NCBI GenBank assembly: GCA_050124835.1
Contig: JASFEM010000001.1
Location: 15,280-79,279, forward strand
Source of the DNA: Syntrophobacterales bacterium
Lineage (GTDB): Bacteria > Desulfobacterota > Syntrophobacteria > BM002
Direction of reading: 5' to 3'
Length of the DNA: 64,000 bases
Below the pieces are notes generated by a model. That model was given only the letters and a program-made list of their open reading frames with translations. It was not told the DNA's origin and did not search any database. The stretch's first letter is position 1, and every line of letters begins with the position of its first letter. Below are positions 22,598-46,128 of this stretch, one piece after another. A program made the translations under genes and the position numbers.

Positions 22598-22670
22598 GAC
22601 ATATCGCAAAAGGAATAGGACAGCCTACGGGGACCTGTAGTCTCTGTGAAAGCCAGCCTAAAACGTTATT

Positions 22671-25699: not shown

Positions 25700-25877
25700 G
25701 TCAGCAGGCAGTAAGGCGTGAATGGTCACGCGCAACAATACCGAACCAGAAACCACCTGGCGCAAGGCTTAGGGCGCAAGGCACAAGGAGTTGCCTTGTA
25801 AGGAAGATTTTTAAATTCCCTGAGCCTTTAGCCTTGAGCCTTATGCCTCAGACCAAATGACTATTGACCAATGACCA

Positions 25878-26621: not shown

Positions 26622-26712
26622 ACCCCACCCCTACTCAAGTCCAAACTATATTATTTTTTGTGAGTCGCAACGGACTACGGACCACGGACTGCGGACAACA
26701 GGAGGAGGCGAC

Positions 26713-27102: not shown

Positions 27103-27124
27103 TTTGCGGAATAAACGCTTCCCT

Positions 27125-27823: not shown

Positions 27824-27839
27824 ATGGGGGGATTGGGCC

Positions 27840-29107: not shown

Positions 29108-30298
29108 ATGAAACCGTTATATATGATAATCATCGCCCTGGTATTGGTCCTCTTGGTCTACCATCAGGTCACTGGAGAAATGGAAAAACAGATTCAGGAT
29201 AAACCCGAGAACACCAAGGAGGCATATTTTGCCGGCGGCTGTTTCTGGTGCACCGAAGCCGATTTTGAGAAAGTTGACGGCGTCATCGACGCTATCTCGG
29301 GTTACACTGGGGGCAACATTGCCAATCCCACCTACAAGCAGGTCTCCAAAGGCGGAACCGGGCACGTGGAGGCCGTGAAAGTGGTATACGACCCCACCAA
29401 GGTCACCTATGAGGAGTTGCTCGAGGTGTTCTGGATGCATGTGGATCCCACCGATGGAGACGGACAGTTTGTGGATCGCGGCTCCCAGTATCGTAGTGTT
29501 ATCTTTTACAGTAACGAACAAGAGCACCGTTTGGCTGAAGCCTCTAGGAAACGATTGGCGGCTTCGGGCCGCTTCGACAAGCCGATAGCGACCGATATCC
29601 TTCCGCTGGGCCCCTTTTACCCGGCTGAGGACTACCACCAGGATTACTACAAAAGAAATTCCATCCGCTACCGCTGGTACCGTCACGGCTCTGGCCGGGA
29701 CCAATTCCTGAAAAATGTATGGGAAGACAAGGAGTCAGATATGAAACCGCAAGCCAAAAAGGTTGAGATGGAAGATGAAATAAAGGAGAGTCGAATGAGC
29801 GCTGACAAGATAAAAGAAAAGACCGACGCCCGTATGGCATCTGACATGGAAGCCGGCCGGATGTACAACCGTCCCGGCGAGGAAGAGCTGCGTCGGCAAT
29901 TGACGCCCATGCAATACAAGGTCACCCAAAAAGACGGTACGGAGCCACCCTTCAAAAACGCTTACTGGAATAATCACGAGATGGGCATCTACGTGGACAT
30001 TGTCTCGGGGGAGCCTCTTTTCAGCTCGAAGGATAAGTTCGACTCTGGTACGGGCTGGCCCAGCTTCACCAAGCCTTTGGAGCCAGATAATATAGTGGAG
30101 AAGACGGACCGGAGTTTTTTTATGACTCGTATCGAGGTACGGAGCAAGCATGGCGACTCGCACCTCGGTCATGTATTCAACGACGGCCCCGAGCCCACGG
30201 GTCTGCGCTACTGCATCAACTCGGCCGCCCTAAGATTCATTCCCGAGTCGGACTTGGAAAAGGAAGGCTACGAAATATACCGGAAGCTGTTCGAGTGA
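29108..30298 (+). CDS. msrAB: Bifunctional peptide-methionine sulfoxide reductase MsrA/MsrB fusion with an N-terminal membrane anchor.
   Basis: MsrA GCFWC motif and MsrB motifs (CINSAAL, HLGHVF). Confidence 0.92.
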
Positions 30299-31277: not shown

Positions 31278-31476
31278 TCTCGTTCGGTATTTGATGACTA
31301 GTACAGCTTGATATAGTTGTCTATTTAATCGTTGGTATCGTCTGCACTGAATTGGGTGCAATTTTAGCAATTAAATATTTGAAACTTAGTCAATGAAATC
31401 GAAAAAGTTTTATAGGAAGGAGGTGTCAGTCGTTCTTTTTTTGTTCCCATATTATAAAACAATGAAGGAGGAAACC

Positions 31477-33168
31477 GTGAAGAAAGTATCTTTCGTATTG
31501 ACCCTATTGATTGTCGGAATTGCCCTCATGGCTGCGGTTCCCAACAGCGCCCTGGCAGCAGCAAAAATCTCTGCTACCGAATATAAAGTTGGGGATACTG
31601 TCACTATAGAGGGAAGCATCGAGCCCGGCAAAGATCTCTACGTCACCGTAGTCTCGCATACCACGTTTGCACCTAAAGACACGGATGGTGTACACGAGGT
31701 GGCTCGGCTCAAGAAAGAGGCCCAAAAAAGAGGCTTCACCAATGAGACTAGGATACCTGTCTTTTATTACCTGCTAACCTCCAATCCCTCGCAATTTGGA
31801 AAGGTTACCAAGAAAAAATTTGGTGGGCCATCCTTCCTGCCGGGACTCTACAGCACAACCATGTTCAAGCTGGCAAAGTTTGACCAGCTTGATGCTGAGG
31901 CCAAGAATGTTTTGGGCCCCATCAAAAGCAAAGATGAGTGGAATTTCTTCAGATTCGCCCACGAATCTGCCTATGGCATCAACACCATTACCAAGGAAGG
32001 AGCCAAGAGAGGAAAAATCGTAATATTTGCCCGTAGTATCCTGGGAGATTACGGCACAAGCAAGAATTACTGGGACAAGGGCACGTCAGTTCAGTTGGAC
32101 AAGAGCACTGGAAAATTCACGGCCTCTTTCAAAACTTTCCGTCACACCCCGCCTAACAGCAAGTTTGACGTCTATGTGAACGGTGCCAAGGCCGGAACAT
32201 ATAACTTGCAGCCGAAAGGCTTCTGGCTGAGCAGGGGTTACCGTTACATGAACCCGATCATAATCACACTCGGCGCCATTGTTGTTGGTATTTTCTTCAC
32301 CATGATCGGCGCCGCCGGCGGCATGCTCATGGCGGCCTATCAGGTCATCGTTGTTCAGACCGCCGGTCCTATCGGCATTAACGCTGCCAACGTGCTGCGC
32401 TCATCGAACATAGCTTTGACCCTGTTCGCGCCACTGGGCGCTTTTTACCGGTACGCTGTGGTGGAGAAGCGGGTTGCCTGGCCTGTTGGTATCTCTTTTG
32501 GTGTGGGAATTTTGATCGGCTCCATCTGGTTGGGGAAATATGCAACTGCATACCTGCCCATGAAAAGCTATAAGGAGTGGTTGGCGGTTCTGGTTGTGAT
32601 CATGGGTATCAGAACCCTTTATGAGCTCACACCCAAGGTCATGGAAAAGAGGAAAGCCATCAAAGCGATGGTCAAAAAGTTTAATGAAGAGGTTGCACGG
32701 GCAAAAGCTGAAGGGCGCGCCGTTGAAATGGGTAAAATTGAAACGGTTAAGACCGGTCTTACTAGTTATCATTTCAAGTTTTGGGGTGAAGACTTCAGTA
32801 TTAACCCATTGCTCTTCGGTATCCTTGGCATAGTAATCGGGATAGTCTCTCGCTCGTTCGGTATCGGCGGCGGCTTCCTATTGGTGCCCGCCATGACCAC
32901 CCTGGGTGCTCTGCCCATGTACGTGGCCGTGCCTGTTGGGCTGATTGGTACTTCCTTCAGCAGCATCGGTTCCTTTATCGGCTACGCCATGAACAGGTAC
33001 TGGCCCGACTTGTGGATATTCATTGCCGTTATCATTGGTGGCTTTGTCGGGGGCATGCTTGGCAGTCGCTTCCAGAAGCTTTTCAGTGAGAGAGTCCTGA
33101 AGTGGGTGTTGGCAATTACCCTATTTTTCCTTTTCTTCCGCTTTTTCAAGATCGAAATCTGGATCTAG
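31477..33168 (+). CDS. TauE/SafE (DUF81) family membrane transporter fused to a roughly 270-aa N-terminal secreted domain of unknown function.
   Basis: An AAGGAGG RBS precedes the GTG start, giving MKKVSFVLTLLIVGIALMAAVPNSALA. An Lys-rich soluble domain is followed by two TauE-type 4-TM repeats with Gly-rich motifs (GAAGGMLM, GIGGGFLLVP). Confidence 0.7.
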   Translation: MKKVSFVLTLLIVGIALMAAVPNSALAAAKISATEYKVGDTVTIEGSIEPGKDLYVTVVSHTTFAPKDTDGVHEVARLKKEAQKRGFTNETRIPVFYYLLTSNPSQFGKVTKKKFGGPSFLPGLYSTTMFKLAKFDQLDAEAKNVLGPIKSKDEWNFFRFAHESAYGINTITKEGAKRGKIVIFARSILGDYGTSKNYWDKGTSVQLDKSTGKFTASFKTFRHTPPNSKFDVYVNGAKAGTYNLQPKGFWLSRGYRYMNPIIITLGAIVVGIFFTMIGAAGGMLMAAYQVIVVQTAGPIGINAANVLRSSNIALTLFAPLGAFYRYAVVEKRVAWPVGISFGVGILIGSIWLGKYATAYLPMKSYKEWLAVLVVIMGIRTLYELTPKVMEKRKAIKAMVKKFNEEVARAKAEGRAVEMGKIETVKTGLTSYHFKFWGEDFSINPLLFGILGIVIGIVSRSFGIGGGFLLVPAMTTLGALPMYVAVPVGLIGTSFSSIGSFIGYAMNRYWPDLWIFIAVIIGGFVGGMLGSRFQKLFSERVLKWVLAITLFFLFFRFFKIEIWI

Positions 33169-33184
33169 AGGACTGACAAAAAAA

Positions 33185-33218
33185 TGGGAAGGGGAAGGAG
33201 CAGTTTCCTTCCCCTTCC
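33185..33218. terminator. Perfect 14-bp-stem hairpin (GGGAAGGGGAAGGA...TCCTTCCCCTTCCC), possibly a bidirectional terminator.
   Basis: The inverted repeat is read directly. A-rich sequence lies on one side and T-rich sequence on the other. Confidence 0.5.
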
Positions 33219-33241
33219 CAAAAAAGAAAGAGTTAACTGAA

Positions 33242-33886
33242 ATGGAAGAATTTCTAGATACTTTGTGGTTTAGAATAGAAGTCTTAATTGATTATCTGAG
33301 AAGCTTTCTTGATTTCTTATTCGGCCCTCTCAATTCTTTGGGGCCGGCCGTTGCCATAGCAACGATGGCCTTGATCACGGTTGCAGTAACAAAGTACTTT
33401 ACCAAGAAGTTTAAAACCAAGCGATACAGAGAGTTAAAAAAGGAGTTTGCCCATTGGTACAATGTCCGTCAAGAGGCGACAAGATGTGAAGATTACGAAA
33501 AAGGAAAGCTTCTTGCCAAAAATATAGACAGTGCCAAGTTAAACAAGGTCTATTACGACTTCTTTCTTGAGGGGCTTTTGAACAATGTCTTAACGATGTA
33601 TTTACCCATTTTACTTGTTTTGGCTTATGTCAACGAGACTTACAACAGTGCTCATTTACTCAAGCTATTTGGGCGAGAATATGTATTCAGGCTCTGGAGC
33701 TTTAATGGAGACACGCTCGCTGTGGGAGCTGCTTTCTGGTTTGTCCTTTCCCTTTTGCTCATTTATCTGTGCTGGTTCATAGTAGAAAAGATATATGTAA
33801 AATTTGTAGTTGAAAAAAGAAACAACCGGGTACCGTATTGGGGGGCGAAGAGCCAGTTTTATGAGCAGTATCGTGACGCAGGCTAA
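33242..33886 (+). CDS. Hypothetical membrane protein (214 aa). TM segments flank a charged coiled-coil segment.
   Basis: Hydrophobic segments with a KKFKTKRYRELKKEF charged stretch. No confident family assignment. Confidence 0.5.
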   Translation: MEEFLDTLWFRIEVLIDYLRSFLDFLFGPLNSLGPAVAIATMALITVAVTKYFTKKFKTKRYRELKKEFAHWYNVRQEATRCEDYEKGKLLAKNIDSAKLNKVYYDFFLEGLLNNVLTMYLPILLVLAYVNETYNSAHLLKLFGREYVFRLWSFNGDTLAVGAAFWFVLSLLLIYLCWFIVEKIYVKFVVEKRNNRVPYWGAKSQFYEQYRDAG

Positions 33887-33895
33887 CCCGTCGCT

Positions 33896-34270
33896 CTAGA
33901 AGAGATGGTAACCAACAAGGAAGATTCCCAGCAATTCACCCAAACCTGCCGACAGGTGAAAGTGTCTTTCCTCAATATTTCTTGCCAGATGACCACAGAT
34001 TACCACAAAGCCGACAATTATGATTGCGACCATCGGCCAGCCCATTGCCAGCTCGAACCAAGACAATATCCATTTGGCAGTGAGGACGGCCACCGACCCC
34101 ATGGCGATACCCTGGATTAAGGGAACAAGGTATTTGGATATCCAGCTGAAACGCTCGAAAGGACTCACTAGAGGGGTGAGGATTATTCCACTGATCGCTC
34201 CAGCGACCAGTTTTCCATTTAGCAGTGCCAGGACCAATGCTACTCCATAACCTATGAATAGTCTCATCAC
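33896..34270 (-). CDS. Small hypothetical membrane protein (124 aa, roughly 4 TM).
   Basis: Strongly hydrophobic ORF on the opposite strand between plus-strand genes. Confidence 0.45.
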   Translation of the reverse strand: MMRLFIGYGVALVLALLNGKLVAGAISGIILTPLVSPFERFSWISKYLVPLIQGIAMGSVAVLTAKWILSWFELAMGWPMVAIIIVGFVVICGHLARNIEERHFHLSAGLGELLGIFLVGYHLF

Positions 34271-34366
34271 TATGTGCTCTGGTGGGATTACATTTTGACA
34301 ACCACAAAAATTCTATAGTATTTAGAAAGCTACGTCTAGTTTCCAATTTCGAGGAGGTCCTCCGTC

Positions 34367-34504
34367 ATGTGTAGCCGAGAGAAAACTCTCTGTATGTTTC
34401 CCGAAAAGTTGAAAGAGAAACCAAAAGCATGCACTCCGGAACAGATCAAGGAGTGCCATGGCGATGACAAGAACCATCCCTGCGTCTCTGAGAAGAAAAG
34501 CTAG
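34367..34504 (+). CDS. Small Cys-rich peptide (45 aa: MCSREKTLCMFPEKLKEKPKACTPEQIKECHGDDKNHPCVSEKKS).
   Basis: Perfect GAGGAGG RBS 6 nt upstream. The peptide has five Cys and sits 40 nt upstream of the TauE/SafE gene. It is missing from the ORF track because it is under 60 aa. Confidence 0.5.
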   Translation: MCSREKTLCMFPEKLKEKPKACTPEQIKECHGDDKNHPCVSEKKS

Positions 34505-34544
34505 CACAGTCTCCCGCTAAGAGGGTGAAATAGGTCCTACTCTC

Positions 34545-35297
34545 ATGTCCTGGTTCCTGCTCATGCCTATCATCTTTGCGAGCTCGCTTGTTCTCACCAT
34601 GGTGGGCCTAGGGGGTGGGCTCATCTTCTCCCCCCTATTTGTTCTCCTTTCCTTCCCGGTCTCCACGGCGGTCTCTGCCTCTCTTTTTCTGAACGGCATC
34701 GCTGCTCTGTCCGCGGCCATTACCTATTTTCGCAAGAAAATGATAGACGTGCAGGTTGGGGGGCCCCTCATCCTTGCCTCAGCCCTGGCCGCTCCTCTGG
34801 GTGCGCTTACCACCTCCAGGGTAAATATCAAGATCTTTACTGCCATTCTGGCAGGGGTGATCTTTCTGGCTTCTCTGCGCATGCTCTTCTCAGGCAAAAT
34901 AGAGGCTGCGACTGAGGAGGTCGGTACCAGGAGGAGGGTCATTGGCGGTGGTGCCATTGGCTTGGTTATTGGCTTCATGGCAGGGCTTCTAGGAATCGGT
35001 GGTGGGGTTTTCATTGTCCCCTTACTGATTTACATCTTGAGGGTACCCACAAAGATCGCGGCCGCCACCTCCATCTTTATCGTGGTCTTTTCCTCATGTA
35101 GCGGCTTCATTACCCATGCGTCTTTGGCTAGGGCCGACTGGAATTTCATCTTGGTGGCTGCCTGCTTCTCCTTTGCCGGCGGTCAGGTGGGCTCGCGAAT
35201 CATGGCAGAGAAGCTCAAAGGAAGGACCGTGCGGAGGCTCTTCGGAATTGTGCTCTTGGCTTTTGCCTTTAAGCTGATTCAGCGGGTGTGGTGGTAA
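34545..35297 (+). CDS. TauE/SafE (DUF81) family membrane transporter (sulfite/anion exporter family).
   Basis: 250 aa with duplicated 4-TM repeats carrying GLGGGLIFSPL and GIGGGVFIVPLL motifs. Confidence 0.85.
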   Translation: MSWFLLMPIIFASSLVLTMVGLGGGLIFSPLFVLLSFPVSTAVSASLFLNGIAALSAAITYFRKKMIDVQVGGPLILASALAAPLGALTTSRVNIKIFTAILAGVIFLASLRMLFSGKIEAATEEVGTRRRVIGGGAIGLVIGFMAGLLGIGGGVFIVPLLIYILRVPTKIAAATSIFIVVFSSCSGFITHASLARADWNFILVAACFSFAGGQVGSRIMAEKLKGRTVRRLFGIVLLAFAFKLIQRVWW

Positions 35298-35323: not shown

Positions 35324-36457
35324 TCATTTGGAGGAGTTCAGATATTCGAAGTACTTCTGGACAAATTTTCCCGAAACCGCATCTGCCAGCGTGAAGACGA
35401 GTCTCCTTTCGACTGCATTAGACGTGGTGAGGGCGTGAAACATATTCTCAGAAGTCCTAGCCAGTACTGCATCCACTTGATCATAGTCGAGCCTGGCACC
35501 ATCTGCCGCCACCTCACCTTGATCAGCAAAGATTCGGACCTTACCCTCATGGGAAACAGGTAGGCCATAGAGCCTACACGCAGTCGGTCGTATGGGGTAT
35601 ACGGTACATCTGGAGTTAACATTAAGGGGGCACCTTATCTCTTCTTGAGCATATATCTCAGCGAACTTGTGCGAATCATCCTTAGTTTCGCTACCAGCCC
35701 GCAGCCTTTTCTCAAGATCTCCAATCTTTTTCGACACTCCCACCGCCCGTTGGATCGCCTCCTTGCGCTCAGTGCTGGTGAGGTGAAGGCTCATCTTGTG
35801 GTTTAGATAGGCCGCTTCTATAAACTGAAGATCAACCGGTCGGTAGCAGCACGCTTCACTTTCCAGACCGCAACTCAAGAGTCCCCCACCGGTGGTTTCG
35901 GCAGTTCTCTGAAACGCATGATCAATGAGATTTAAGAGAGTTTCATACTCTTGGAAGTACGGGTTCAAATCAGCGATGGGTCCGTTATCCAAAGAAGGTT
36001 GCCGGAATTCTAAGGTCCCAGCCTGCTTGTGGTATTTTCTCAACAATCGCCACTGAGAGAAACTACTGGAGACAGCCCGCGTTTCCTCGACCCTCTTTCT
36101 GGCCAGCTTCAAGCCATATCCTTTTCGAAGCAGATAGGCCATAACAAAGGTCGCTGTTCTGCCAATCCCAAAACGGCAATGGACGAGAACCTTCTTTCCC
36201 AGATAAAGGGCCTCGTCCAGCCAATCCAGCGCCTTTTCAAGCTCATCCATAGAAGGCACTTCATTATCGCAGGTGGGCAGATAGTACACTTCAAAGTCAT
36301 ACTCTTTTTGAATTTCATGAAGATTACAGAATTCTCCACATAGGTTCACAATAGCATTGATCCCTTGTTGTCTCATTGATTCCATTTCTCCATGAGACAA
36401 GGGAGCGTGGCCGAGACCAAGGCTCTCTGTCAACCAGGAAATGAGATAATCTGTCAT
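35324..36457 (-). CDS. Dual-specificity protein phosphatase domain fused to a YkgJ/UPF0153 (CxxCxxCC) putative Zn/Fe-chelating domain.
   Basis: DSP signature VLVHCRFGIGRTATF (HCxxGxxR). The C-terminus has CGLESEACCYRP...CPLNVNSRCTVYPIRPTACRLYG. Confidence 0.75.
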   Translation of the reverse strand: MTDYLISWLTESLGLGHAPLSHGEMESMRQQGINAIVNLCGEFCNLHEIQKEYDFEVYYLPTCDNEVPSMDELEKALDWLDEALYLGKKVLVHCRFGIGRTATFVMAYLLRKGYGLKLARKRVEETRAVSSSFSQWRLLRKYHKQAGTLEFRQPSLDNGPIADLNPYFQEYETLLNLIDHAFQRTAETTGGGLLSCGLESEACCYRPVDLQFIEAAYLNHKMSLHLTSTERKEAIQRAVGVSKKIGDLEKRLRAGSETKDDSHKFAEIYAQEEIRCPLNVNSRCTVYPIRPTACRLYGLPVSHEGKVRIFADQGEVAADGARLDYDQVDAVLARTSENMFHALTTSNAVERRLVFTLADAVSGKFVQKYFEYLNSSK

Positions 36458-36470
36458 TTTCTCTATACCC

Positions 36471-39038
36471 TCATCTTCGCTGCAATGGGCTGAAATCGTA
36501 GATGCCGTTCATAAATCTTTCAATCAGTTCTTCCACCTGCGAACCATCTTTCAGAGACATATCCAGCACTCTGGTGCATCCCAGCAGTTGTCCCAATACC
36601 TCTAGTTTGGCCTCCAAGGTTTGGCGGTCATTTCTGCTCAGTTGAGCATCAATCATATCGCCCTTTTTTTCAACTTTAAAGCCATGGTGTGACAAAATGC
36701 CTTCCAGGAATTTCAGCCTCAAGAACTTCGAGTACAAATCACCACCTCCACCGGCAAACCTTAGCATAATATAGTTTTCGTCAAGCTCATGGCCGCAAAG
36801 GGTATCGAGAACTACAAAATGAAAGCCAAAATGGATATTGAAGTTAAGGTAGTCATGGGAAAGAATTGCATAACTGCCCAAGAATTTGGATTCTGGCCGG
36901 ACAACACTATCACTGCTACTAATTCTGGCGAACTCCTGCCAATCGTAATGCCTCACATTAGGGTCCCAGTATATCCCAGGATTACTGAGGCCCTTCCACA
37001 GTGCTTTTAGTGGAATGTTGGTAATATCGTTGAGCTCAATTTCTTTCTTAGTGCGCGCTTCCTCAACAAGGCCACCACCAAGGTCGAGCAAATAAATTAT
37101 TATAGGTATCTCTGAAATCAGTCTTTTTGCTCCTGCGGCCCTTCTGCTTCCCTTGTCACCCAACAAAAACATCTGTTGGATGGATTTTTCGTGGGCAAAT
37201 CTGAGGATATCATGTAGGCTCTCACAGCCCTCGGGCGCAAAAGCCTCCGCGAGAGGATCTACCAGGTTTAGGGGCGAAATGTCGCTGAGAATCTTTTCCA
37301 TGCTCACCATGAAGGGGCTGTCTGTCAAAAGGGATCTCACGGAACATGCACTTCCCACTAGCTGCTCAACTATACCTTCGTATACAATCTTGGCTTCCGC
37401 GTAGACAGTGACCTCTTGTCCTGAAGTGAGGCTGTTCATGGCCACGCCTGTGTTTACCAATGTAGGAATGCCGAACTCTCTGGCCACCGAGGCGAAGTGC
37501 CCTGCCGTGCTGCCCACATCCGTTATCACTGCACTTATTTTCCCCACCACTTTGACCAAATCGGGGGACGGCACCTTGGCCACCACGACTGCCCCTTGCG
37601 GGAGGCTCTCTAAATCTTTCGATCTCTCTACTTTGTAAACTTCACCAGCAGCGATGCCTCCGCAAGCGCTATTCCCACCAGACAACAACACCCGGCTATC
37701 CACCTCAATATTGCTACAGTCAATTTTCTGCTGATCCTTATCTTCAATATGGAGAGGTCTGGACTGCAGAATGAAAAGCTTGCCCTCGTTGTCCATGCAC
37801 CATTCGATGTCTTGAGGGGTTCCTTGAAAGTCTTCCAGTTTGGTTGCCCATTCCATCAACTCGAGAGCAGACTGATCATCCAGGGCCAGATTCGCCGGCA
37901 AGTCATCCACCCCAGAGACTACTTGAATACCGCCTTTCTTAAGTGGAACCGCTTTCACGGGCTGAAATATCTCCTTGTCTCGCTCAAGCTGGTGGGGTGG
38001 TTCCCTCGTCACCCTGATAACGCTGGGGGTAACGCTGCCGTCTACAAGCAACTTCCCCAAACCCCATATGGAATGGATAGCCAATGTGCCACCACCAGTC
38101 TCCTCAGGATCGAGCGTATATATCACCCCGCTCACCCCGGCATCAATCATCTCCAAGACCAATACTGCCATGGGAGTCTCTCGGTCAGACAGCCCGTAGT
38201 TGATACGGTAATTGAGTGCCCGAGGTGAATACTTACTGGCAATGACTTCTTTATAAGCGTCAACGATTCTATTCGGTTGCACATTAAGAACCGACTCGTA
38301 CTGCCCAGCGAAAGAGGCCGCGCTGTCCTCGCCAACAGCACTACTGCGTACTGAGACCCGAAGTCTCCCAACTTGGTCCCCGCTGATCTCTTTGAGCGCA
38401 GTGCTGATTTCCTCTTCTATTGCCTTCGGGACTCGGGCTAATTGAATGAGTTTCACCAAATCCTCTGAGGTTTTCTCCACTGAACTGGCAGAATTGAGGT
38501 CGAGTTGAGCCAGCCGCTCATCAATCTTCTCGCGGAGGTTGTTTTCCTCTATTAAATAGTTAAATGAGTTGGCAGTAACGACAAAGCCTCTCGGCACCGG
38601 TAAGCCCAACCCTTTACGCACCGTGGCCAAATTGAACGCTTTACCGCCAACCAACAGGTGGCTGTCTGTACCCAGTTCATCAAGTGTTAGAGTGAAAGGC
38701 GGAGAGAAGTCATAGGAACTGGGGGCCAAAACTTGTTGTATCCTCTGGTCTATGGCGCGGAAGCAATCATCAAGTTTTGGATAGCAGGTGGGGCATATTT
38801 CGCTGAGCGACTTGACAACTTTCGTAACAGACGAGGACAGCTGCTTGCATTTGTGCTCTATTGCGGCAAAATCGACTTTGAGCTGCTCGTAGTAGATCTG
38901 CTCCAACTCGGCGATCAGTTCATGGCTTTTTTTGTCGTGCTCCAGCAAATTCCTGAATGCTTCATATTTCTCCTGAACCAGAAGGCCAGGAGCGAAGATT
39001 TTGTACGTCCAGTGTTTAAATAGATTAGCAACGTACAT
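36471..39038 (-). CDS. PEP-utilizing-enzyme-family dikinase (PpsA/PPDK-like): ATP-grasp domain, phospho-histidine swivelling domain, and a non-canonical 300-aa C-terminal domain.
   Basis: 855 aa. PPDK_N-like region (GGKAFNLATV...SVRSSAVGEDSAASFAGQ), then a mobile His domain (GGNSACGGIAAGEV...GSTAGHFASVAREFGIPTLVNTG). The C-terminal third lacks PEP/pyruvate TIM-barrel motifs. Confidence 0.8.
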   Translation of the reverse strand: MYVANLFKHWTYKIFAPGLLVQEKYEAFRNLLEHDKKSHELIAELEQIYYEQLKVDFAAIEHKCKQLSSSVTKVVKSLSEICPTCYPKLDDCFRAIDQRIQQVLAPSSYDFSPPFTLTLDELGTDSHLLVGGKAFNLATVRKGLGLPVPRGFVVTANSFNYLIEENNLREKIDERLAQLDLNSASSVEKTSEDLVKLIQLARVPKAIEEEISTALKEISGDQVGRLRVSVRSSAVGEDSAASFAGQYESVLNVQPNRIVDAYKEVIASKYSPRALNYRINYGLSDRETPMAVLVLEMIDAGVSGVIYTLDPEETGGGTLAIHSIWGLGKLLVDGSVTPSVIRVTREPPHQLERDKEIFQPVKAVPLKKGGIQVVSGVDDLPANLALDDQSALELMEWATKLEDFQGTPQDIEWCMDNEGKLFILQSRPLHIEDKDQQKIDCSNIEVDSRVLLSGGNSACGGIAAGEVYKVERSKDLESLPQGAVVVAKVPSPDLVKVVGKISAVITDVGSTAGHFASVAREFGIPTLVNTGVAMNSLTSGQEVTVYAEAKIVYEGIVEQLVGSACSVRSLLTDSPFMVSMEKILSDISPLNLVDPLAEAFAPEGCESLHDILRFAHEKSIQQMFLLGDKGSRRAAGAKRLISEIPIIIYLLDLGGGLVEEARTKKEIELNDITNIPLKALWKGLSNPGIYWDPNVRHYDWQEFARISSSDSVVRPESKFLGSYAILSHDYLNFNIHFGFHFVVLDTLCGHELDENYIMLRFAGGGGDLYSKFLRLKFLEGILSHHGFKVEKKGDMIDAQLSRNDRQTLEAKLEVLGQLLGCTRVLDMSLKDGSQVEELIERFMNGIYDFSPLQRR

Positions 39039-39091: not shown

Positions 39092-39457
39092 TCAGTCTTG
39101 ACCTGCCAAGACTTTTTCCACTTTCTCTTCTATTTCATCAATGTCGATAGGCTTAATGAGGTATTCATTCGCTCCGAGAGTAAGCGCTTCCCGGGCTGAC
39201 TCTAGAGTAGGATAACCGGTGAGCATTATCACCTTCATGTGTGGGTCTATTTTCTTTAGCTCCTCGAGGACTTCAATCCCAAGAATCTTTTTTAGTCTAA
39301 TGTCAAGAATTGCCAGATCGACCTTATTTGTCCTGGCATGGCCAATTGCTTCCTCTTCCTCAGTAAAAGAAAGAACCTGATGGCCTTTCTCCACAAGAAT
39401 CCTTTGGAGCAGGATAACCGCATCCGGTTCATCATCGAGTACAAGAATGGTGGCCAT
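39092..39457 (-). CDS. Stand-alone CheY-like response regulator receiver.
   Basis: 121 aa with ILVLDDEPD, DLAILDIRL, IMLTGY and LIKP. Confidence 0.88.
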   Translation of the reverse strand: MATILVLDDEPDAVILLQRILVEKGHQVLSFTEEEEAIGHARTNKVDLAILDIRLKKILGIEVLEELKKIDPHMKVIMLTGYPTLESAREALTLGANEYLIKPIDIDEIEEKVEKVLAGQD

Positions 39458-39497: not shown

Positions 39498-40388
39498 TCA
39501 GGAAAGAGTCATCGGATCAAGCGGGTGGTGCTGGGAGGCCAGGGTGATCCTCAGACTCTCCCGCATGTGGCGAGGAAGCATGCTAGCAAAGGTCTTCATA
39601 ACCATTTCTGAGGAATTGTTGGTATCACTCACATGAGCGAAGATGACCTCTTGCAGATCTTCGCTATAAACTTGAGAGAGAACTATTACCGACTGCTCAT
39701 TGGAAAGATGACCAAATCGACTTCTGATTCGCTGTTTCACCGGCCAGGGATAGGGGCCATTTTTCAGCATTTCAACATCATGGTTTGCCTCCAGAACCAG
39801 GATGGAGCAGTTCTCGAGATGACGATGAACCAGGTTGGTAGCCGCTCCCAGATCAGTGCAAACTCCAACCTTTACCGAGCCATTGACCAGGGCAAACCCT
39901 ACCGGGTCGGCGGCATCGTGTGAAATGGCAAAGGGATGAATAGTGGTGTCTTCAACAGAGAAACTTTTTCCGGTTCTAAACTCAACTTTCTCCCCCAGTC
40001 GCCCCACCATCTCCGGGAGATGGGCATGGGTCAGCTGGTTTAGATAAACCGGCAGCTTATATCTCCTTGCAAGACTACCCAGGCCCCGGACGTGGTCCAG
40101 GTGTTCATGGGTCACGATGATCCCATCAAGATCTTTAGGGTTGACACCTACGGTGGCCAGACGGTGCTTTGTCTCCCGCCCACTGAGACCGGCATCTATG
40201 AGTAGACGAACCCTCTCGGTGGCAAGGTAGATGCTGTTACCCCGAGACCCACTAGCTAAGACGGACAATCTTATGCTCAACTTTGCCCCCTGATCACGCG
40301 CTATTCTCTTGCCTGGGCCAGGTTCAAATCCGAATATCGAAGCACGAATTTCGAGACAAATCCGAAATACGAATTCTCCAATGTTCAA
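39498..40388 (-). CDS. MBL-fold metallo-hydrolase (YycJ/WalJ- or PhnP-like).
   Basis: HxHxDH motif IIVTHEHLDHVRG. The real start is probably a downstream TTG giving MSIRLSVLASGSRGNS, because the 5' part of the ORF runs into the repeat element. Confidence 0.75.
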   Translation of the reverse strand: MNIGEFVFRICLEIRASIFGFEPGPGKRIARDQGAKLSIRLSVLASGSRGNSIYLATERVRLLIDAGLSGRETKHRLATVGVNPKDLDGIIVTHEHLDHVRGLGSLARRYKLPVYLNQLTHAHLPEMVGRLGEKVEFRTGKSFSVEDTTIHPFAISHDAADPVGFALVNGSVKVGVCTDLGAATNLVHRHLENCSILVLEANHDVEMLKNGPYPWPVKQRIRSRFGHLSNEQSVIVLSQVYSEDLQEVIFAHVSDTNNSSEMVMKTFASMLPRHMRESLRITLASQHHPLDPMTLS

Positions 40389-40490
40389 AACAAAAGATTA
40401 GATACATTTCAATCAAAATTTTGGAAATTTGAATTTGTTTGGGATTTCGTGCTTGGGATTTCGGATTTAGGCTCACCCATTGGGTGAGCT
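40316..40490. repeat. Second copy of the MITE/REP-like element seen at 846-1040. Inverted heptamer-word arms flank the shared core.
   Basis: The 21-mer is identical at 40372-40392. Arms aaatccgaatatcgaagcacgaatttcg and cgtgcttgggatttcggattt are reverse-complementary in word content. Confidence 0.6.
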
Positions 40491-40491
40491 G

Positions 40492-40983
40492 CTAACGTCC
40501 GGTATGCCCAAATCCTCCCTCGTTGCGCTCGGTCTCGTCTAGGTCTTGCCTGAGATCCCACTGTACCCGGTAGATTCTGCTTATGATCATCTGGGCAATC
40601 CGATCGCCCCTCTTAATGGTAAAGGGATTCTTCCCCAGGTTAATCAGCGCCACCCTGATTTCGCCCCGATAGTCACTATCTATCGTCCCTGGCGCATTTA
40701 TGACAGCAAGACCATGCGAAATTGCCAGCCCACTGCGTGCCCGGATCTGTCCTTCATAGCCCTCGGGTATGGCCACCGCCAACCCGGTTGAGATCAAGGC
40801 AGCTTCCTGGGGTTGGATGGTTAGGTCTTCATCTATGGCGGCAACAAGGTCCATTCCCGCTGCTCGGGAACTCATGTATTGAGGCAGGGGTAGGTCTTTG
40901 TCAGCCTCCCTCCGCAGACGACGGATGGGGATAGAGAGAATTTTGCTGCGGGTTCCTGTGCTCGCGTCTACCGGTTCGGTCAT
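40492..40983 (-). CDS. dut: dUTP diphosphatase.
   Basis: Dut motifs AGMDL, RSGLA, GTIDSDYRGE and GGFGHTG. Confidence 0.9.
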   Translation of the reverse strand: MTEPVDASTGTRSKILSIPIRRLRREADKDLPLPQYMSSRAAGMDLVAAIDEDLTIQPQEAALISTGLAVAIPEGYEGQIRARSGLAISHGLAVINAPGTIDSDYRGEIRVALINLGKNPFTIKRGDRIAQMIISRIYRVQWDLRQDLDETERNEGGFGHTGR

Positions 40984-41032: not shown

Positions 41033-42289
41033 TTACAGATCTAAGAATGTTTGGTCTAAGCCAAGCCCGTCCACCTGTCCCAAAAGCACGGAGGACATGA
41101 CCTCCGGCCGGAAGATTTCCTGAGCTAGAGCTTGAACATCTTCAGAGGTAACCTTCTCGAGGCCGGCCTCTATCTCCTCGTAAGTGACAAACCGGCCGAA
41201 GATCATCTCGTTTTTAGCCAGACGACTCATACGATTGTCAGTGTTTTCGGCGGCCAGGTAGATGCCCCCCTTGATATGTTCTTTGGCGGCACGAAGTTCG
41301 ACATCACTGATGGGCTTCTGTTTTAAGCTTCGGAGTTCATGCCGAATCACCTCAAGGGTTTCCTTAATATTGTCGGGTCGAACCGCGCCGTAAATTCCCA
41401 GCATCCCAGAATCAGTGTGTGAAGAAAGAAAGGAGTAAATTGAGTAGGCCAGCCCACGACGCTCCCGCACCTCCTGAAATAGTCTGGAACTCATACTGCC
41501 ACCCAGGATGACATTCAGGATACTGCAGCAATATCGCTCATCTTCTACCAGGGAGGCTCCCCGTGTTCCCAGGCAAAGGTGGATCTGTTCCAGATCTCTA
41601 GGATAAAGCTCTACGCCTGAGACAATGGTTGGAGGAGTGCGGTTGAGGTTGTGTGAATGCCTCTTGACGTTACGGAAAGCCGGCTCCACTAATTCTAGAA
41701 ATTCTTGGTGATCCACATTACCTGCTGCGCTCAAGACAATGCGATCTGGGTGGTAGCCGCGGTTCAGGTAGCCCAAAATAATCTCCCTGGTGAAGCTCTG
41801 TACCGTCTGGGCATTGCCAAAGATCGGCCGGGCCAAGGGATTCCCGTCCCAAAAAGCCTGGTTGAAAAGCACGTGGACGTATTCGTCGGGGGTATCTTCC
41901 ACCATGTTGATTTCCTGGAGGATAACCTCACGCTCGCGTTCCACTTCCTGATGATCAAATACCGAGTGGAGAAAAATATCAGCTAGTATATCCACGACAA
42001 GGGGCAGATGAGCATCCAAGACCTTGGCATGAAAGCAGGTGTTTTCTTTGCTGGTAAAGGCATTGGACATGCCCCCCACAGCATCCAGTTGCTTGGCTAT
42101 TTCCAGAGCACTTCTCTTCTTCGTGCCTTTGAAGAGCATGTGCTCGATGAAGTGGGTCAAGCCGCTCTCGCTTTCGGCTTCATCACGGGAGCCCACATTC
42201 AGCCAGATACCCATGGAGACCGAATGAAGATGGGGAATCCTCTCAGTCACCACCCGCATCCCATTGTCCAAGATGGTTCTTTTATACAA
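41033..42289 (-). CDS. M16-family zinc peptidase (pitrilysin-like).
   Basis: Inverted zinc motif HFIEHMLF and a downstream Glu. Confidence 0.88.
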   Translation of the reverse strand: MYKRTILDNGMRVVTERIPHLHSVSMGIWLNVGSRDEAESESGLTHFIEHMLFKGTKKRSALEIAKQLDAVGGMSNAFTSKENTCFHAKVLDAHLPLVVDILADIFLHSVFDHQEVEREREVILQEINMVEDTPDEYVHVLFNQAFWDGNPLARPIFGNAQTVQSFTREIILGYLNRGYHPDRIVLSAAGNVDHQEFLELVEPAFRNVKRHSHNLNRTPPTIVSGVELYPRDLEQIHLCLGTRGASLVEDERYCCSILNVILGGSMSSRLFQEVRERRGLAYSIYSFLSSHTDSGMLGIYGAVRPDNIKETLEVIRHELRSLKQKPISDVELRAAKEHIKGGIYLAAENTDNRMSRLAKNEMIFGRFVTYEEIEAGLEKVTSEDVQALAQEIFRPEVMSSVLLGQVDGLGLDQTFLDL

Positions 42290-42494
42290 CCCGTGTCTCC
42301 CTCTCTAACTCTGTCCGTTGTCAGTTGTCAGTGGTCCGTGGTACCGTCGCTCACCTTATTCGCGACCGGCTCAAGGCGCAGGGCGCAAGGCATAAGGCAA
42401 ATCCATAGAATCCATTTGCTGCTCTATGCTTCGTGTTCTATGCTCTGCGCTTTTTTCGCAACGGACGACTGACCAGACCCAATTGGGCATTTTA

Positions 42495-44588
42495 CTAGTT
42501 GCTAATGGTTTCTCCTAAAGCGGCCTTTCGACTCAAGCGAATGCGTCCATCCCTATCGATTTCCAGTACCTTGACCAGCACCTCATCCCCTTCATTGAGA
42601 ATATCGCGAACTCTTTGCACTCTCTTATGGTCCAGCTGCGAAATGTGAATCAAGCCATCGGTGCCTGGAAGGATCTCCACAAAAGCGCCAAAATCTGTTA
42701 TTTTGCGCACCTTGCCAAGATAGAGACCACCGACCTCCGCTTCTGCGGTGAGCTGTTTGATCATCTCCACCGCCTTCTGGCAGCCGGCAAGATCTGGACT
42801 CATGATGACCACCTTACCATCGTCATCCACGTCGATCTTGGTACTGGTTTCGGCAATAATTTGGCGGATGACCTTGCCACCCGGACCGATAACGTCACGA
42901 ATTTTGTCGGGATGTATTTCAATGCTCACAACTCGAGGCGCATAGGGTGAGAGTTCTTTACGGGGCGCCGGGATGGCGTGGTTCATCTTCTCGAGGATAC
43001 TCAACCGTCCCTCTCTGGCCTGAAAAAGAGCCTGGCGCATCACCTCACGAGGTACACCGGCCACCTTTATATCCATCTGCAAAGCGACAACGCCCTCAGA
43101 ACTTCCGGTAACCTTGAAATCCATATCTCCCAGGTAGTCCTCGTCGCCAAGGATGTCGCTAAGGATGGCTACCTGGTCACCTTCCATGATCAAACCCATG
43201 GCGATCCCCGCAATTGAATTCTTTAAAGGTACCGCCGCATCCATTAAAGCCAGAGAACTGGCACATACCGAGGCCATGGAAGAGGAACCGTTGGATTCCA
43301 ACACTTCGGCCACCACTCGCACGGTGTAGGGGAAATCTTCATGGGAGGGCATCACTGCTTTAATGGTCCTTTCAGCCAAGGCCCCATGGCCGATTTCCCG
43401 CCGACTAGGTCCACGAAGGAACCTGGCCTCCCCCACACAATAGGGAGGAAAGTTGTAGTGGAGCATAAAGGTCTTCCACTCATCACCTTCCAACGCCTCG
43501 ATCTTCTGTTCGTCAGAAGAGGATCCTAAAGTGACCACGGAGAGCACCTGGGTCTCCCCGCGGGTAAAAAGTCCAGAGCCATGGGTGCGCGGCAGCCGGC
43601 CAACCTGGCAATCAATTGTCCGAATGTCGGCGAGATTTCGTTTATCGATCCTAGTTTTCCGCGTGAGGATCATCTGGCGCACAAATTTCTTTTCGAGATT
43701 TTGCAGAATCTCCCGCACTTCCCCCTCTCGCTCCGCAAAATCCGGACCGAGTTTTTCCATCACCTCTTGGATCACCGCATTCCGCAGGAGATAGCGGGCT
43801 TCTTTTTCGGCAGTGGTGTTGGCTTCCTCAATTTTCCCCTGGGAAAGCTCTGCCACCCGAGCGGCCAGGGCTTCGTCTTCTTGTGGAGGCTCGTATTGTC
43901 TTTTATTTTTACCGCAGCGAGACTTGAGCGTCTCTTGCATATCCAAAATGGGCTGTATGGCATCGTGGGCTCTATAGAGAGCCTCCAATAAATCATCCTC
44001 ACTCACAAACTGAGCGCTACCCTCCACCATGACGATACCCTGGCGGTTGCCAGCCACAACCACATTGAAGTCGCTCATTTCTAACTGGTCTGCAGTGGGA
44101 TTGATTACCATTTGTCCATTGGCTCGACCAACCCGAACCGCTCCGATGGGTCCTTGAAACGGAATATCCGAGATTTCGAGTGCGGCAGATGCCCCCACCA
44201 TTGCCACCGTATCCGGATCGTTATCAGGATCCGCAGAGAGCACGGTGGCAATCACCTGGATTTCCTTTCTATATTTCTTGGGAAACAGGGGTCGGATTGG
44301 GCGGTCGATAAGGCGCGATGTCAAAGTTTCCCGTTCGCTGGGACGTCCGATCTCGCGGCGGAAAAAACCGCCAGGGATCCTGCCCACTGCAAAGCCCTTT
44401 TCCATGTAGTCCACGCTGAGCGGCAGGAAATCAATACCCTCGCGGATCCTTTCCTCACCAACCGCGGTTACAAGAACCACCGTTTCTCCGTAACTGGCGA
44501 GTACAGCACCGCTGGCCTGCTTGGCCATCTCCCCAGTTTCGAGTCTGAATTGCCGACCGCCTAACTCTATTTCAATATTTTCTTTCAT
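42495..44588 (-). CDS. pnp: Polyribonucleotide nucleotidyltransferase (PNPase).
   Basis: 697 aa with two RNase PH domains, KH, and S1 at the C-terminus. Confidence 0.95.
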
Positions 44589-44785
44589 AATCTTTCCCTT
44601 TTTCTACTCCAACTCTGGCATGCGCAAATGATAAGAGTCGCTCATGAACAGGTTTGACATGTGTTGATAAATTTGAGATCAATTTCTAATCTCCGGTATA
44701 CAATGCTGCTAAAACTTGCACGTTTTCCTCTGAAGCCTCCCAAAAAACCATTGGCCGACTCCTGCCGGATCCTCGCTGCCGTTCG

Positions 44786-45055
44786 CTAACGGCGAAGACC
44801 CAATCTCTCTAGGACCTCCCGGTATCTACCCACATCCTTTCGCTTGAGGTAATCCAACAGCCGCCGGCGTTGGCCCACCAGTTTTAGCAACCCCCGCCGC
44901 GAATGATGGTCCTTCTTGTGAGTCTTAAAGTGTTCAGTGAGATAGGTAATTCGCTCGCTGAGCAAAGCTATCTGCACTTCTGGAGAGCCGGTATCGGTCT
45001 CGTGTGTTTTGAAATTCTCAATGACTTCTTTTTTCCTCTCAGCAGTTAGTGCCAC
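44786..45055 (-). CDS. rpsO: 30S ribosomal protein S15.
   Basis: [21 protein letters not shown] motif. A GTG start is preferred because GAGGAGG lies 8 nt upstream and it gives the canonical 89-aa length. The track ORF extends to 45079. Confidence 0.9.
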
Positions 45056-45120
45056 CGTAAGTCCCTCCTCGTAATTCAAACCGGAACCTCGTCCCGCTTA
45101 ATAAAAAAAGTACCTCCATA

Positions 45121-46128
45121 CTAGGAAAATTTTGGCTGTGTCTTGGAAACATTCCCAAAAACGCGCAGAGTCTTGAAGACGATCTCCTTGTCCGGGAGAT
45201 CATCAGCTGATTTGACGACCATCGCCACCAACTGATTATCAGGGTCCAAAACTTTGGCCGGCCCTCTCGGCCAACTCTTGCCGCTGTATTCGTCAATAAG
45301 ATGTGCTGATTCCAAGACGCCGCCCTGGCGAATTCTCTTGGCGGCTGGATGCGATACTCGAAGTTTTGGGTATCCCTCCAAAGCTGCCACTTGACTAATA
45401 AGCAAGCGGTCTAACTCACTTTTGGACACCACCTCCTCGAGTTGCTCAAGGGTCACAGCCTGACTCAAACGAAAGCCCCCGCTTCTTAGCCGTCGCAACT
45501 CACTTACATGCCCATTACAGTTCAGATAATGGGCCAAATCCACCCCAAGGGATCGCACATAGGTTCCCTTGGAGCAGGTGACTTTAAAGGTTGCCTCTGG
45601 CCAGCTTAACTGTTGCAATGACAGGGTTATGATCCTCACTTTGCGACTGGGTGGAGTTACCTGGACACCGCGGCGTGCCAGTTGGTACAACCGCTTACCC
45701 CCCACTCGCACTGCCGAGTAGCGCGGCACCGTCTGCTCTATTTCACCAGTGAACGCAGCGCACGCCTCTCTGATTACAGTCTCCTGGAGCGGCTCAGATT
45801 GCGTCTGAGCCACCACCCTCCCGGTGCAATCCTGCGTGTCTGTTTCAACACCAAAGCAGACTTTGAAAAGATAGGTCTTTTCCTGATCCACCAAAAAGGG
45901 CGAAAGCTTGGTGGCCTCGTTGACCAAAACAATAAGCACCCCAGTGGCAAATGGATCAAGCGTGCCGCTGTGGCCCACTTTGGCACCACCGAGCTTCTTT
46001 TTCACCTGCTGCACGACATCATGAGAGGTTAACCCTTTGGGCTTGTCCAAAATCAGAACACCATGGCCGGTAAATTTCGGTTCATTCTGATGTTCGCTGT
46101 TTTCTCGCACAATAGGGCTGGACCTCAC
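45121..46128 (-). CDS. truB: tRNA pseudouridine(55) synthase.
   Basis: GHSGTLDP catalytic Asp motif and a PUA-like C-terminus. Confidence 0.9.
   Translation of the reverse strand: MRSSPIVRENSEHQNEPKFTGHGVLILDKPKGLTSHDVVQQVKKKLGGAKVGHSGTLDPFATGVLIVLVNEATKLSPFLVDQEKTYLFKVCFGVETDTQDCTGRVVAQTQSEPLQETVIREACAAFTGEIEQTVPRYSAVRVGGKRLYQLARRGVQVTPPSRKVRIITLSLQQLSWPEATFKVTCSKGTYVRSLGVDLAHYLNCNGHVSELRRLRSGGFRLSQAVTLEQLEEVVSKSELDRLLISQVAALEGYPKLRVSHPAAKRIRQGGVLESAHLIDEYSGKSWPRGPAKVLDPDNQLVAMVVKSADDLPDKEIVFKTLRVFGNVSKTQPKFS

Follow-up and report, generated by a model that had tools for sequence, protein, structure and literature searches.

What does an enzyme do when its first two-thirds resemble phosphoenolpyruvate (PEP) synthase and its last third lacks the domain that binds pyruvate? 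This question is raised by a gene at positions 36471..39038 of a 64,000-nucleotide stretch of DNA from a Syntrophobacterales bacterium; the whole stretch is referred to below as the window. The 855-residue product, called here the kinase, has an exact public copy, MGD8774503.1, and an exact-sequence look-up returned two names for it, 'PEP/pyruvate-binding domain-containing protein' at NCBI and 'pyruvate,water dikinase' at JGI; its relatives carry the UniRef label 'Phosphoenolpyruvate synthase'. We estimate at about 70% the probability that the kinase is an ATP-driven phosphotransferase derived from PEP synthase (PpsA), which would work by the three-site swivelling mechanism with a different final acceptor, and would belong to a signal-controlled module of reversible phosphorylation. 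This reading draws on sequence comparison, predicted structure and gene neighbourhood. The features that proved most informative were not part of the original prediction made for this DNA, namely a conserved operon in which a phosphatase and a response regulator accompany the kinase, how large and taxonomically broad the family is, and an association with TauE-type transporters.

Domain architecture of the kinase

A division of the kinase into four parts, a helical N-terminal bundle, a PpsA-type ATP-grasp domain, a swivelling His domain and a family-specific C-terminal domain (CTD), was confirmed. The features are as follows.

36471..39038, minus strand: dikinase-like gene, 855 aa, an ATG-initiated open reading frame (ORF) of exactly this span
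38718..39038, minus strand: N-terminal family-specific all-alpha domain, residues 1-107 (AlphaFold; kept in the family)
37704..38693, minus strand: PpsA-type ATP-grasp nucleotide-binding domain, residues 116-445 (PF01326; 31% identity to E. coli PpsA)
37374..37676, minus strand: swivelling phosphohistidine domain, residues 455-555 (PF00391; PpsA alignment)
37497-37499, minus strand: codon of the catalytic His514, which pairs with PpsA His421 and is invariant
36474..37286, minus strand: CTD, residues 585-855, presumed to be the acceptor or catalytic domain; Pfam, NCBIfam and PDB sequence searches gave no relative

In Pfam, the PPDK_N domain (PF01326) was recognised at residues 129-440 (E 8e-81) and the mobile His domain of PEP-utilizing enzymes (PF00391) at residues 480-547 (E 7e-15), with no match over residues 1-115 or 565-855. 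When the protein was compared with E. coli PpsA by BLASTP, residues 108-580 aligned with PpsA residues 2-488 (31% identity, E 7e-56), and the PpsA barrel (residues 488-792) had no counterpart. Both marks of the swivelling phosphohistidine dikinases are thus present, an ATP-grasp domain with the ATP and Mg ligands and a mobile domain with the catalytic His. Indeed, among 121 non-redundant homologues His514 is invariant, as are K133, R231, S232, S233, E237, D238, F243-Q246, E412, Q425 and R427 of the ATP-grasp domain.

The likeness to PpsA stops at the end of the His domain. NCBIfam PpsA models cover residues 116-563 alone, equivalent to model positions 7-470 of 798, and the scores lie below the equivalog cutoffs (320.7 versus 598 bits for NF005057, and 313.4 versus 739.75 bits for TIGR01418). 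Models of the rifampin phosphotransferase (RPH) type came second with approximately 200-224 bits, and those of PPDK reached approximately 50 bits. The solved PpsA structures 9dae, 8a8e and 2ols align up to residue ~569 and no further. A difference is also found within the His domain. PpsR acts on Thr419 of E. coli PpsA, which precedes the catalytic His by two residues; the E. coli sequence T419-C-H421 corresponds in the kinase to A512-G-H514, and Ala512 is invariant among close homologues.

Residues 1-107 were modelled by AlphaFold (pLDDT 87.5) as four helices, at residues 2-15, 17-50, 57-81 and 89-104. A Foldseek search of this domain against the PDB gave generic helical-bundle matches alone, with a best E of 0.4. 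The domain is present in every full-length family member, down to approximately 20% identity, and it probably serves, if we may speculate, as an oligomerisation or regulator-docking module. An HPt domain, or one like the HPr-binding domain of EI, was considered and found no Foldseek or motif support. Hundreds of homologues keep both extra regions of the kinase, which are therefore genuine domains rather than products of chance or mis-annotation.

A C-terminal domain in place of the pyruvate barrel

The absence of the barrel was approached in several ways. Pfam gave no match of PF02896 (PEP-utilizers_C) on the kinase at E<=1. Two profiles of the CTD were used, one of 21 sequences (A1) and a more diverse one of 37 sequences (A3). 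Against PDB sequences their best E was 0.37, and hhalign comparison with full-length E. coli PpsA gave probabilities of 0.45% and 0.13%; none of the 21 CTD sequences matched any Pfam family. The AlphaFold model of the domain (mean pLDDT 73, core 80-95) has a predicted topology of a long helix, small strands, a four-stranded antiparallel meander, a helix, a hairpin and two further helices, so the fold is predicted to be an antiparallel beta-meander with helices rather than a (beta/alpha)8 barrel. Foldseek found nothing in the PDB at E<0.001 for the CTD (best TM ~0.2), and RPH structures were absent among the 50 matches listed. A degenerate TIM barrel had been considered, with 'LNLVDP...F.P..C..LHD' and 'SHDYLNF' as echoes of the PpsA barrel, and it was ruled out by hhalign with both profiles and by the AlphaFold topology.

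These results agree with the structural part of the original prediction. It had stated that the ATP-grasp and His domains follow each other in the order of PpsA and not in that of RPH or GWD, which Pfam and the BLASTP alignment bear out; that the C-terminal third is without the PEP/pyruvate TIM barrel, as was found with Pfam, NCBIfam, PDB profile searches, hhalign and the AlphaFold topology; and that the first ~110 residues match no recognised domain, to which Pfam (no match) and Foldseek (generic helical, best E 0.4) give the same answer. The profile comparison it had proposed, for a normal PEP-utilizers_C domain over the C-terminus, was negative (the two hhalign values above).

The CTD carries a signature of its own, HD..RF.HE ... 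SYA..S.DYLN ... FGxHF ... NY...RF.GGG. In the 121 non-redundant sequences its mean conservation is 0.485, versus 0.43 for the grasp domain, and 23 of its positions, many of them polar, are invariant. The invariant residues include H609, D610, R613, H616, E617, W691, Y730, H740, N755, F761, G763, G764, R774 and D826. The first five share one helix face, while F761, G763 and G764, followed by R774, form a strand-GlyGly-helix junction. Such conservation speaks for an active enzyme, in which the third domain would itself be the catalytic or acceptor site, and against a relic.

A phosphatase and a response regulator encoded with the kinase

Two further genes of the window belong to the argument.

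35324..36457, minus strand: dual-specificity (Cys-based) phosphatase (DSP), 377 aa, 13 nt after the kinase stop
39092..39457, minus strand: CheY-like single-domain response regulator, 121 aa (PF00072 4.5e-27), ending 53 nt upstream of the kinase start

No terminator-like site lies in the gaps of 53 nt and 13 nt between the three genes; scans for promoters and terminators gave results at or below chance. Pfam recognised DSPc (5e-16), Tc-R-P and PTP-SAK domains in the phosphatase, with a weak match to CxxCxxCC. Its DSP domain occupies residues ~1-150, with the motif H93-C94-RFGIG-R100-T and D64; all 78 orthologues compared keep the general acid D64 and the HCx5R loop, as expected of an active DSP. 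The closest solved relatives of this domain are small archaeal and bacterial protein tyrosine phosphatases (PTPs) and the MAPK phosphatase DUSP10.

The link between kinase and phosphatase extends far beyond the window. The locus analyses of the window's subfamily covered the best 80 loci from at least 525 encoding genomes. The DSP gene stands immediately downstream of the kinase gene, on the same strand, in 67 of the 72 loci with room for it; the remaining five have it at another position of the locus. An unbiased clustering of all neighbouring ORFs found it in 77 of 80. Moreover, kinase and DSP are fused in a single chain in two proteins, P0149 (1,252 aa) and P0210 (1,205 aa). The C-terminal half of the long-form DSP (35324-35890, minus strand) holds the conserved cysteines C196, C203, C204, C276, C284 and C294 and weakly matches the CxxCxxCC family of Zn/Fe-chelating domains, with an Fe-S label at JGI. 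This Cys-rich domain occurs in about three-quarters of the orthologues and is missing from about one-quarter; through it, the phosphatase could receive a redox or metal input.

The response regulator has an intact receiver domain, with D8/D9, D52, T80 and K102 conserved in its orthologues. Single-domain regulators 60-75% identical to it adjoin the kinase-DSP pair in 42 loci, placed either upstream and co-directional or convergent downstream. This identity exceeds that of the kinase CTD in the same loci (43-62% by tblastn), except in locus L005 (87%). A kinase of sCache-PAS-HisKA type is encoded in 35 of the 43 informative loci and a periplasmic binding protein (PF12974) in 16 of them, and fully co-directional arrays running from binding protein through histidine kinase and response regulator to kinase (and DSP) were found in L002 and L086. 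In the window, no sCache-type kinase cognate to the orphan regulator was seen among the annotated parts (approximately 19-46 kb).

The clustering of neighbouring ORFs gave no other recurring neighbour besides TauE-family proteins and a protein of approximately 210 residues. In the window these are encoded on the opposite strand.

31393..35297, plus strand: cluster of TauE-family membrane proteins (Pfam TauE hits), a recurrent neighbour
31393-33168, plus strand: 591-aa TauE with an N-terminal extension (TauE591), in 13 of 43 informative loci
33242-33886, plus strand: 214-aa uncharacterised protein (hyp214), in 9 of 43 informative loci
34545-35297, plus strand: 250-aa TauE (TauE250), in 8 of 43 informative loci

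The set of 591-aa, ~210-aa and 250-aa proteins occurs in approximately 30% of the loci of the window's subfamily. Proteins of the TauE/SafE family (TSUP) lie near the kinase in L005, L006, L010, L013, L017, L018, L058, L062, L076 and L078 and, in a divergent group described below, in loci that include L098, L125 and L164. With a rough expectation of approximately 1% per locus, the recurrence of TauE is far above chance and hints that the module is tied to the transport of sulfur oxyanions or other anions. The TauE cluster is possibly a part of the module.

Family size and subfamilies

At E<=1e-3 the CTD profile retrieved at least 1,408 representatives, each standing for a cluster at 50% identity; at E<=1e-30 there were 706. 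Almost all have 800-870 residues, with the CTD at the same position. A pattern scan of GTDB species genomes found at least 525 that encode the family. The members seen are sulfate- or sulfur-respiring anaerobes of Thermodesulfobacteriota and Nitrospirota. The best 80 loci of the window's subfamily are almost all labelled Thermodesulfobacteriota or 'Deltaproteobacteria', and include the cultured Desulfacinum hydrothermale DSM 13146 and Desulforhabdus sp. TSK.

A divergent subfamily has the same layout with the signature HDITRFxHE ... NYIxFxFKGGG. It is found in Nitrospirota and other lineages, for example Thermodesulfovibrio (including the cultured strain 3907-1M), Thermodesulfobacterium and Dissulfurispiraceae. 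Two-component genes accompany it in 48 of 80 loci and TauE genes in 24 of 80 (17 of 39 informative loci), and response regulators adjoining these kinases are 26-42% identical to that of the window. Other neighbours encode Usp and CBS proteins, a permease of the Na:sulfate-symporter type, a DUF4881 lipoprotein and a shorter dikinase-like paralogue. A universal DSP partnership was considered and rejected, because it holds in the window's subfamily and in 0 of 80 loci of the divergent one. The partnership is therefore a firm property of the window's subfamily alone, and the association with signalling and anion transporters is the broader family trait.

Several side observations concern these groups. 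In the Nitrospirota-type subfamily, a TauE of ~351 aa, a 99-aa membrane protein and Usp occur in 24 of 80 loci. The dikinase-like paralogue, of ~680 aa with a partial PPDK_N and a His domain, is the immediate neighbour of the full-length kinase in 15 of the 80 divergent loci (e.g. L099:1245-3287), which suggests a two-protein system there. A subclass of ~1,050 aa (loci L085, L087-L089 and L092-L094; relatives P0197, P0233, P0264, P0240 and P0260) has an extra C-terminal ConA-like (lectin/LamG) domain, recognised by weak Pfam hits, and a second ConA-like protein is encoded near the kinase in L093 and L094. Its neighbours include chromate-type genes (ChrA and ChrB) and transporters of the MFS, SulP, GDT1 and TerC families. 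Its partners vary, being a short DSP, an ArsC-like protein of the low-molecular-weight PTP (LMW-PTP) family with a thioredoxin-like extension, a rhodanese of the sulfurtransferase type, or none. An interchange of three classes of Cys phosphatase in this subclass was considered as well. However, the neighbour from the LMW-PTP family resembles ArsC (CTGNAVRSQ, TLCx6C), the loop of the rhodanese is the CARGGS of a sulfurtransferase and not CX5R, and two further members have no phosphatase, so the idea was dropped as evidence.

Proposed mechanism and the acceptor

The mechanism we propose would proceed in four steps. In the first, ATP-grasp would phosphorylate His514 on the mobile domain with release of AMP and Pi, as strong homology and the invariant active-site residues suggest. 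The phosphorylated His domain would then swing to the CTD and pass the phosphoryl group to a non-pyruvate acceptor; candidates for binding or activating it are H609, D610, R613, H616, E617, Y730, H740, N755, F761, the Gly-Gly loop (G763, G764) and R774. In the window's subfamily the product would be a phosphomonoester, hydrolysed by the co-transcribed DSP with Asp64, Cys94 and Arg100, and the pair would set the phosphorylation level of the acceptor; this step is suggested by linkage and fusion. Finally, judging from the conserved neighbourhood, the CheY-like regulator, usually with the sCache-PAS histidine kinase and the periplasmic binding protein, would control the balance, and the phosphorylation state would be a two-component output, possibly linked to TauE-type anion transport. 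That a phosphomonoester is being turned over is implied, for the window's subfamily, by a DSP which is obligate, sometimes fused and catalytically intact. That the balance between kinase and phosphatase is a regulated signalling output is implied by the dedicated response regulator, histidine kinase and binding protein.

The original prediction had also held that the acceptor is unlikely to be pyruvate, and this is well supported, if indirectly. The barrel is absent, the conserved residues form a different constellation, the phosphatase partner is obligate, and the signalling context is alien to a gluconeogenic enzyme. What the acceptor is instead can be given in graded terms. We lean, at somewhat under even odds, towards a non-protein molecule, i.e. 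an anionic or hydroxylated metabolite or a polymer. To our knowledge, every characterised third domain in the superfamily binds a small molecule or polymer; this, together with the density of invariant polar residues in the CTD and the recurrent anion-transporter genes, favours such an acceptor. A protein side chain, whether on a separate target, on the response regulator or on the kinase, is a serious second candidate, favoured by the resemblance of the DSP to protein phosphatases, the two-component context, the example of VadK (PMC13400623) and the fusion of opposing activities, which is typical of switches. Something else altogether would be a minor possibility.

Several observations weigh against the proposed module. 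In the divergent subfamily, a DSP, LMW-PTP or rhodanese gene was found in 0 of 80 metagenomic loci, nor was one found for the Thermodesulfovibrio genome, so that the step of a reversible ester is supported for the window's subfamily alone. If the substrate is a metabolite, kinase and phosphatase together would run a futile cycle unless tightly regulated. The response regulator, instead of being the controller, could be the acceptor. The CTD model is of moderate confidence by its mean pLDDT of 73, and its residues 1-80 are poor. As to novelty, the literature searched contained no description of the kinase family or of the kinase-DSP-response regulator module, a search to which the survey of the rhodanese-phosphatase superfamily by Burroughs & Aravind (2023) was external, and a prior description may exist.

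Alternative explanations

The alternative that survives best, and which we regard as possible though doubtful, is a protein-directed signalling kinase or phosphorelay. Phosphate would pass from His514 to a Tyr, Ser or Thr residue, either in a target protein or in the kinase's own CTD, and the DSP would reset it; in the phosphorelay form it would reach the adjacent response regulator, possibly via His609 of the 'HD..R' helix, and the enzyme would be an unorthodox histidine kinase similar to VadK. It is in fact a sub-variant of the explanation proposed above, with a specific class of acceptor. The closest solved relatives of the DSP are protein tyrosine and dual-specificity phosphatases, two-component contexts are found in both subfamilies, and the regulator is the sole other small protein which recurs beside the pair; fusion of kinase and phosphatase is typical of signalling switches, and VadK shows that a PPDK-derived protein can be a regulatory His autokinase (PMC13400623). 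On the other hand, the regulator, the one candidate for a conserved substrate protein in the neighbourhood, is missing in approximately one-third of the loci, and where present it usually adjoins a canonical histidine kinase, its expected phosphodonor. Cys-based DSPs are not known as phospho-Asp or phospho-His phosphatases, and the characterised three-domain members of the superfamily use the third domain for a small molecule or polymer. The resemblance of 'HD..R' to an H-box also appears off-register.

A glycan phosphorylation cycle, in which a storage or envelope polysaccharide would be phosphorylated and the DSP would remove the phosphate, is improbable. It is suggested by GWD/PWD with SEX4/LSF2 and laforin; GWD/PWD with SEX4/LSF2 is the sole pairing of a PEP-utilizer-family dikinase with DSP-family phosphatases that we know of. 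The lectin/LamG-like domain of the ~1,050-aa subclass (weak Pfam hits) and the second ConA-like protein in L093 and L094 could point the same way, but ConA-like folds bind proteins too. No carbohydrate-binding module was detected by Pfam in the kinase or phosphatase of the window, and genes for glycogen or polysaccharides are absent from the conserved neighbourhood. The domain order is unlike that of GWD, and two-component control and the TauE association would be unexpected for glycogen turnover.

Lower still we place a catabolic or detoxifying kinase acting on an aromatic or xenobiotic hydroxyl, in the manner of phenylphosphate synthase, AcvAB/HpeHI or RPH. The ATP-grasp and His chemistry is shared, AcvAB has a dedicated phosphatase, AcvF, the RPH-family models were second-best in NCBIfam (approximately 200-224 bits), and Cys-based phosphatases prefer aryl phosphates. 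However, no carboxylase or other catabolic genes lie beside the pair, and the CTD appears unrelated to the substrate-binding domain of RPH by NCBIfam and among the 50 Foldseek matches listed. Moreover, the family occurs in single copy and is vertically conserved, its links are with signalling genes and not with mobile elements or resistance loci, and there was no PADLOC hit.

A genuine PEP synthase (pyruvate,water dikinase) with an extremely diverged pyruvate-binding domain is very improbable: the first two-thirds match PpsA best and the database names 'pyruvate,water dikinase' and 'Phosphoenolpyruvate synthase' agree with it, but the scores are far under the equivalog cutoffs (321 vs 598 and 313 vs 740 bits), there is no barrel by sequence profile or predicted topology, invariant Ala512 stands where E. 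coli has the PpsR target Thr, and a gluconeogenic enzyme would hardly come with an obligate phosphatase and a signalling context.

Other genes of the window

Further genes around the module are listed below.

20972-24074, plus strand: PAS-HisKA kinase and NtrC-type sigma-54 activator
24302-27102, plus strand: dihydrolipoyl dehydrogenase, lipoate ligase and GcvH (housekeeping)
27104-28925, plus strand: OmpR-type regulator and HAMP kinase
29108-30298, plus strand: MsrA-MsrB fusion (housekeeping)
39498-40983, minus strand: MBL-fold hydrolase and dUTPase, directly upstream of the response regulator
41033-46128, minus strand: M16 peptidase, PNPase and TruB (housekeeping)
53200-53275, minus strand: tRNA-Gly(CCC), the sole Rfam hit in the window

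An NtrC-type pair adjoins the kinase-DSP-TauE cluster in L017, L062, L076 and L078. The arrangement with the MBL-fold hydrolase and dUTPase is kept in the close Syntrophobacterales lineage alone (L005, L007-L009) and is probably lineage-specific synteny, not a part of the module. A riboswitch or other RNA clue was sought as well, and Rfam gave nothing in the window but the tRNA. A defence role was rejected, with no PADLOC hit for the kinase or the phosphatase.

Implications

For the family as a whole, the labels at JGI and UniRef are very likely mistaken. Since its members are without the pyruvate domain, it is probably an error for metabolic reconstructions to treat them as gluconeogenic PEP synthase. 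For enzymology, the family offers a well-defined replacement of the acceptor domain in the swivelling-His dikinase superfamily, with two orphan domains and candidate catalytic residues. For signalling, the kinase-phosphatase pair, taken together with its CheY-like regulator, the sensor kinase and periplasmic binding protein, and the recurrent TauE transporters, looks like a complete uncharacterised output. The hosts are environmentally important anaerobes, and some are cultured (Desulfacinum hydrothermale DSM 13146, Desulforhabdus sp. TSK and Thermodesulfovibrio sp. 3907-1M).

Tentatively, one might go further and suppose a new class of bacterial signalling enzymes, in which a swivelling-His kinase is the output of a two-component system. 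It might phosphorylate proteins, as a kinase of neither the Hanks, the BY nor the histidine kinase type that is reset by a DSP, or it might make a phosphorylated small-molecule signal or anion derivative governing sulfur-oxyanion transport of the TauE or SLC13 type in sulfate reducers.

Comparison with known systems

The chemistry of the kinase is familiar; its two orphan domains and the conserved wiring of kinase, DSP and response regulator are not. With PpsA it shares PPDK_N followed by the swivelling His domain, the conserved ligands of ATP, Mg and phosphate, and the correspondence of His514 with His421. Unlike PpsA, it has an unrelated alpha/beta domain of ~270 aa in place of the PEP/pyruvate TIM barrel, an extra helical N-terminal domain of ~107 aa, and Ala at the position of the regulatory Thr; it is encoded together with a phosphatase and a response regulator, and its NCBIfam scores are about half of the cutoff.

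In RPH, too, the pyruvate barrel is replaced by another substrate domain, and ATP is converted to AMP and Pi, with formation of the phosphorylated product, via a swivelling His (PMC4844700). RPH and its PRK06241-type relatives, including PigC and RedH, share this replacement with the kinase and gave the second-best NCBIfam and PDB scores. The order in RPH is, however, ATP-grasp, substrate domain and C-terminal His domain, whereas in the kinase the His domain is central and the CTD comes last. NCBIfam RPH models match the grasp and His parts of the kinase alone, the score of 200.6 bits falls well under the NF041857 cutoff of 999 bits, and there is no sequence link between the CTD and the RPH substrate domain.

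GWD/PWD and the DSP glucan phosphatases SEX4, LSF2 and laforin make up a reversible phosphorylation cycle, and resemble the present system in that a dikinase of the superfamily is paired with a dual-specificity (Cys-based) phosphatase. GWD differs in having N-terminal CBM45 modules, and a His domain followed by a C-terminal ATP-grasp, while the kinase has the PpsA-like order and, by Pfam, no carbohydrate-binding module; its partners form a bacterial operon or fusion amid two-component and anion-transporter genes.

VadK (Rv1127c) of Mycobacterium tuberculosis is derived from PPDK/PpsA, has lost the pyruvate/PEP domain, autophosphorylates on the swivelling His and plays a regulatory role (PMC13400623). 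Its origin and the lack of the pyruvate/PEP domain are common to both enzymes, but VadK is truncated (~490 aa) with no third domain, whereas the kinase has two extra conserved domains, a phosphatase and a response regulator. NF004531, which we take to be the model of VadK-type truncated PPDK, matches in NCBIfam the His-domain region alone, residues 449-559.

Phenylphosphate synthase, AcvAB and HpeHI phosphorylate a hydroxyl by ATP-grasp and His chemistry (PMC12167813), and AcvAB works with a dedicated phosphatase, AcvF, from the same operon (bioRxiv 10.1101/2022.04.28.489975). Both the chemistry and, for Acv, the dedicated operon phosphatase are points of likeness. These are, however, split enzymes of 2-3 subunits, encoded in catabolic operons with carboxylases and a phosphatase of HAD type, whereas the kinase is a single polypeptide with an unrelated CTD and a DSP-type phosphatase, and no catabolic genes accompany it.

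The kinase is thus a member of the PEP-utilizing (swivelling-His dikinase) superfamily. It falls outside PpsA by the missing barrel, the scores and the missing regulatory Thr, outside RPH by domain order and score, outside GWD by domain order and the lack of a carbohydrate-binding module, and outside VadK by its extra domains. RPH (PMC4844700), VadK (PMC13400623) and AcvAB with AcvF (bioRxiv 10.1101/2022.04.28.489975) are precedents for the swap or loss of an acceptor domain in this superfamily. The nearest functional analogies are GWD with SEX4/laforin and AcvAB with AcvF, as dikinases paired with a phosphatase, and VadK, as a regulatory derivative.

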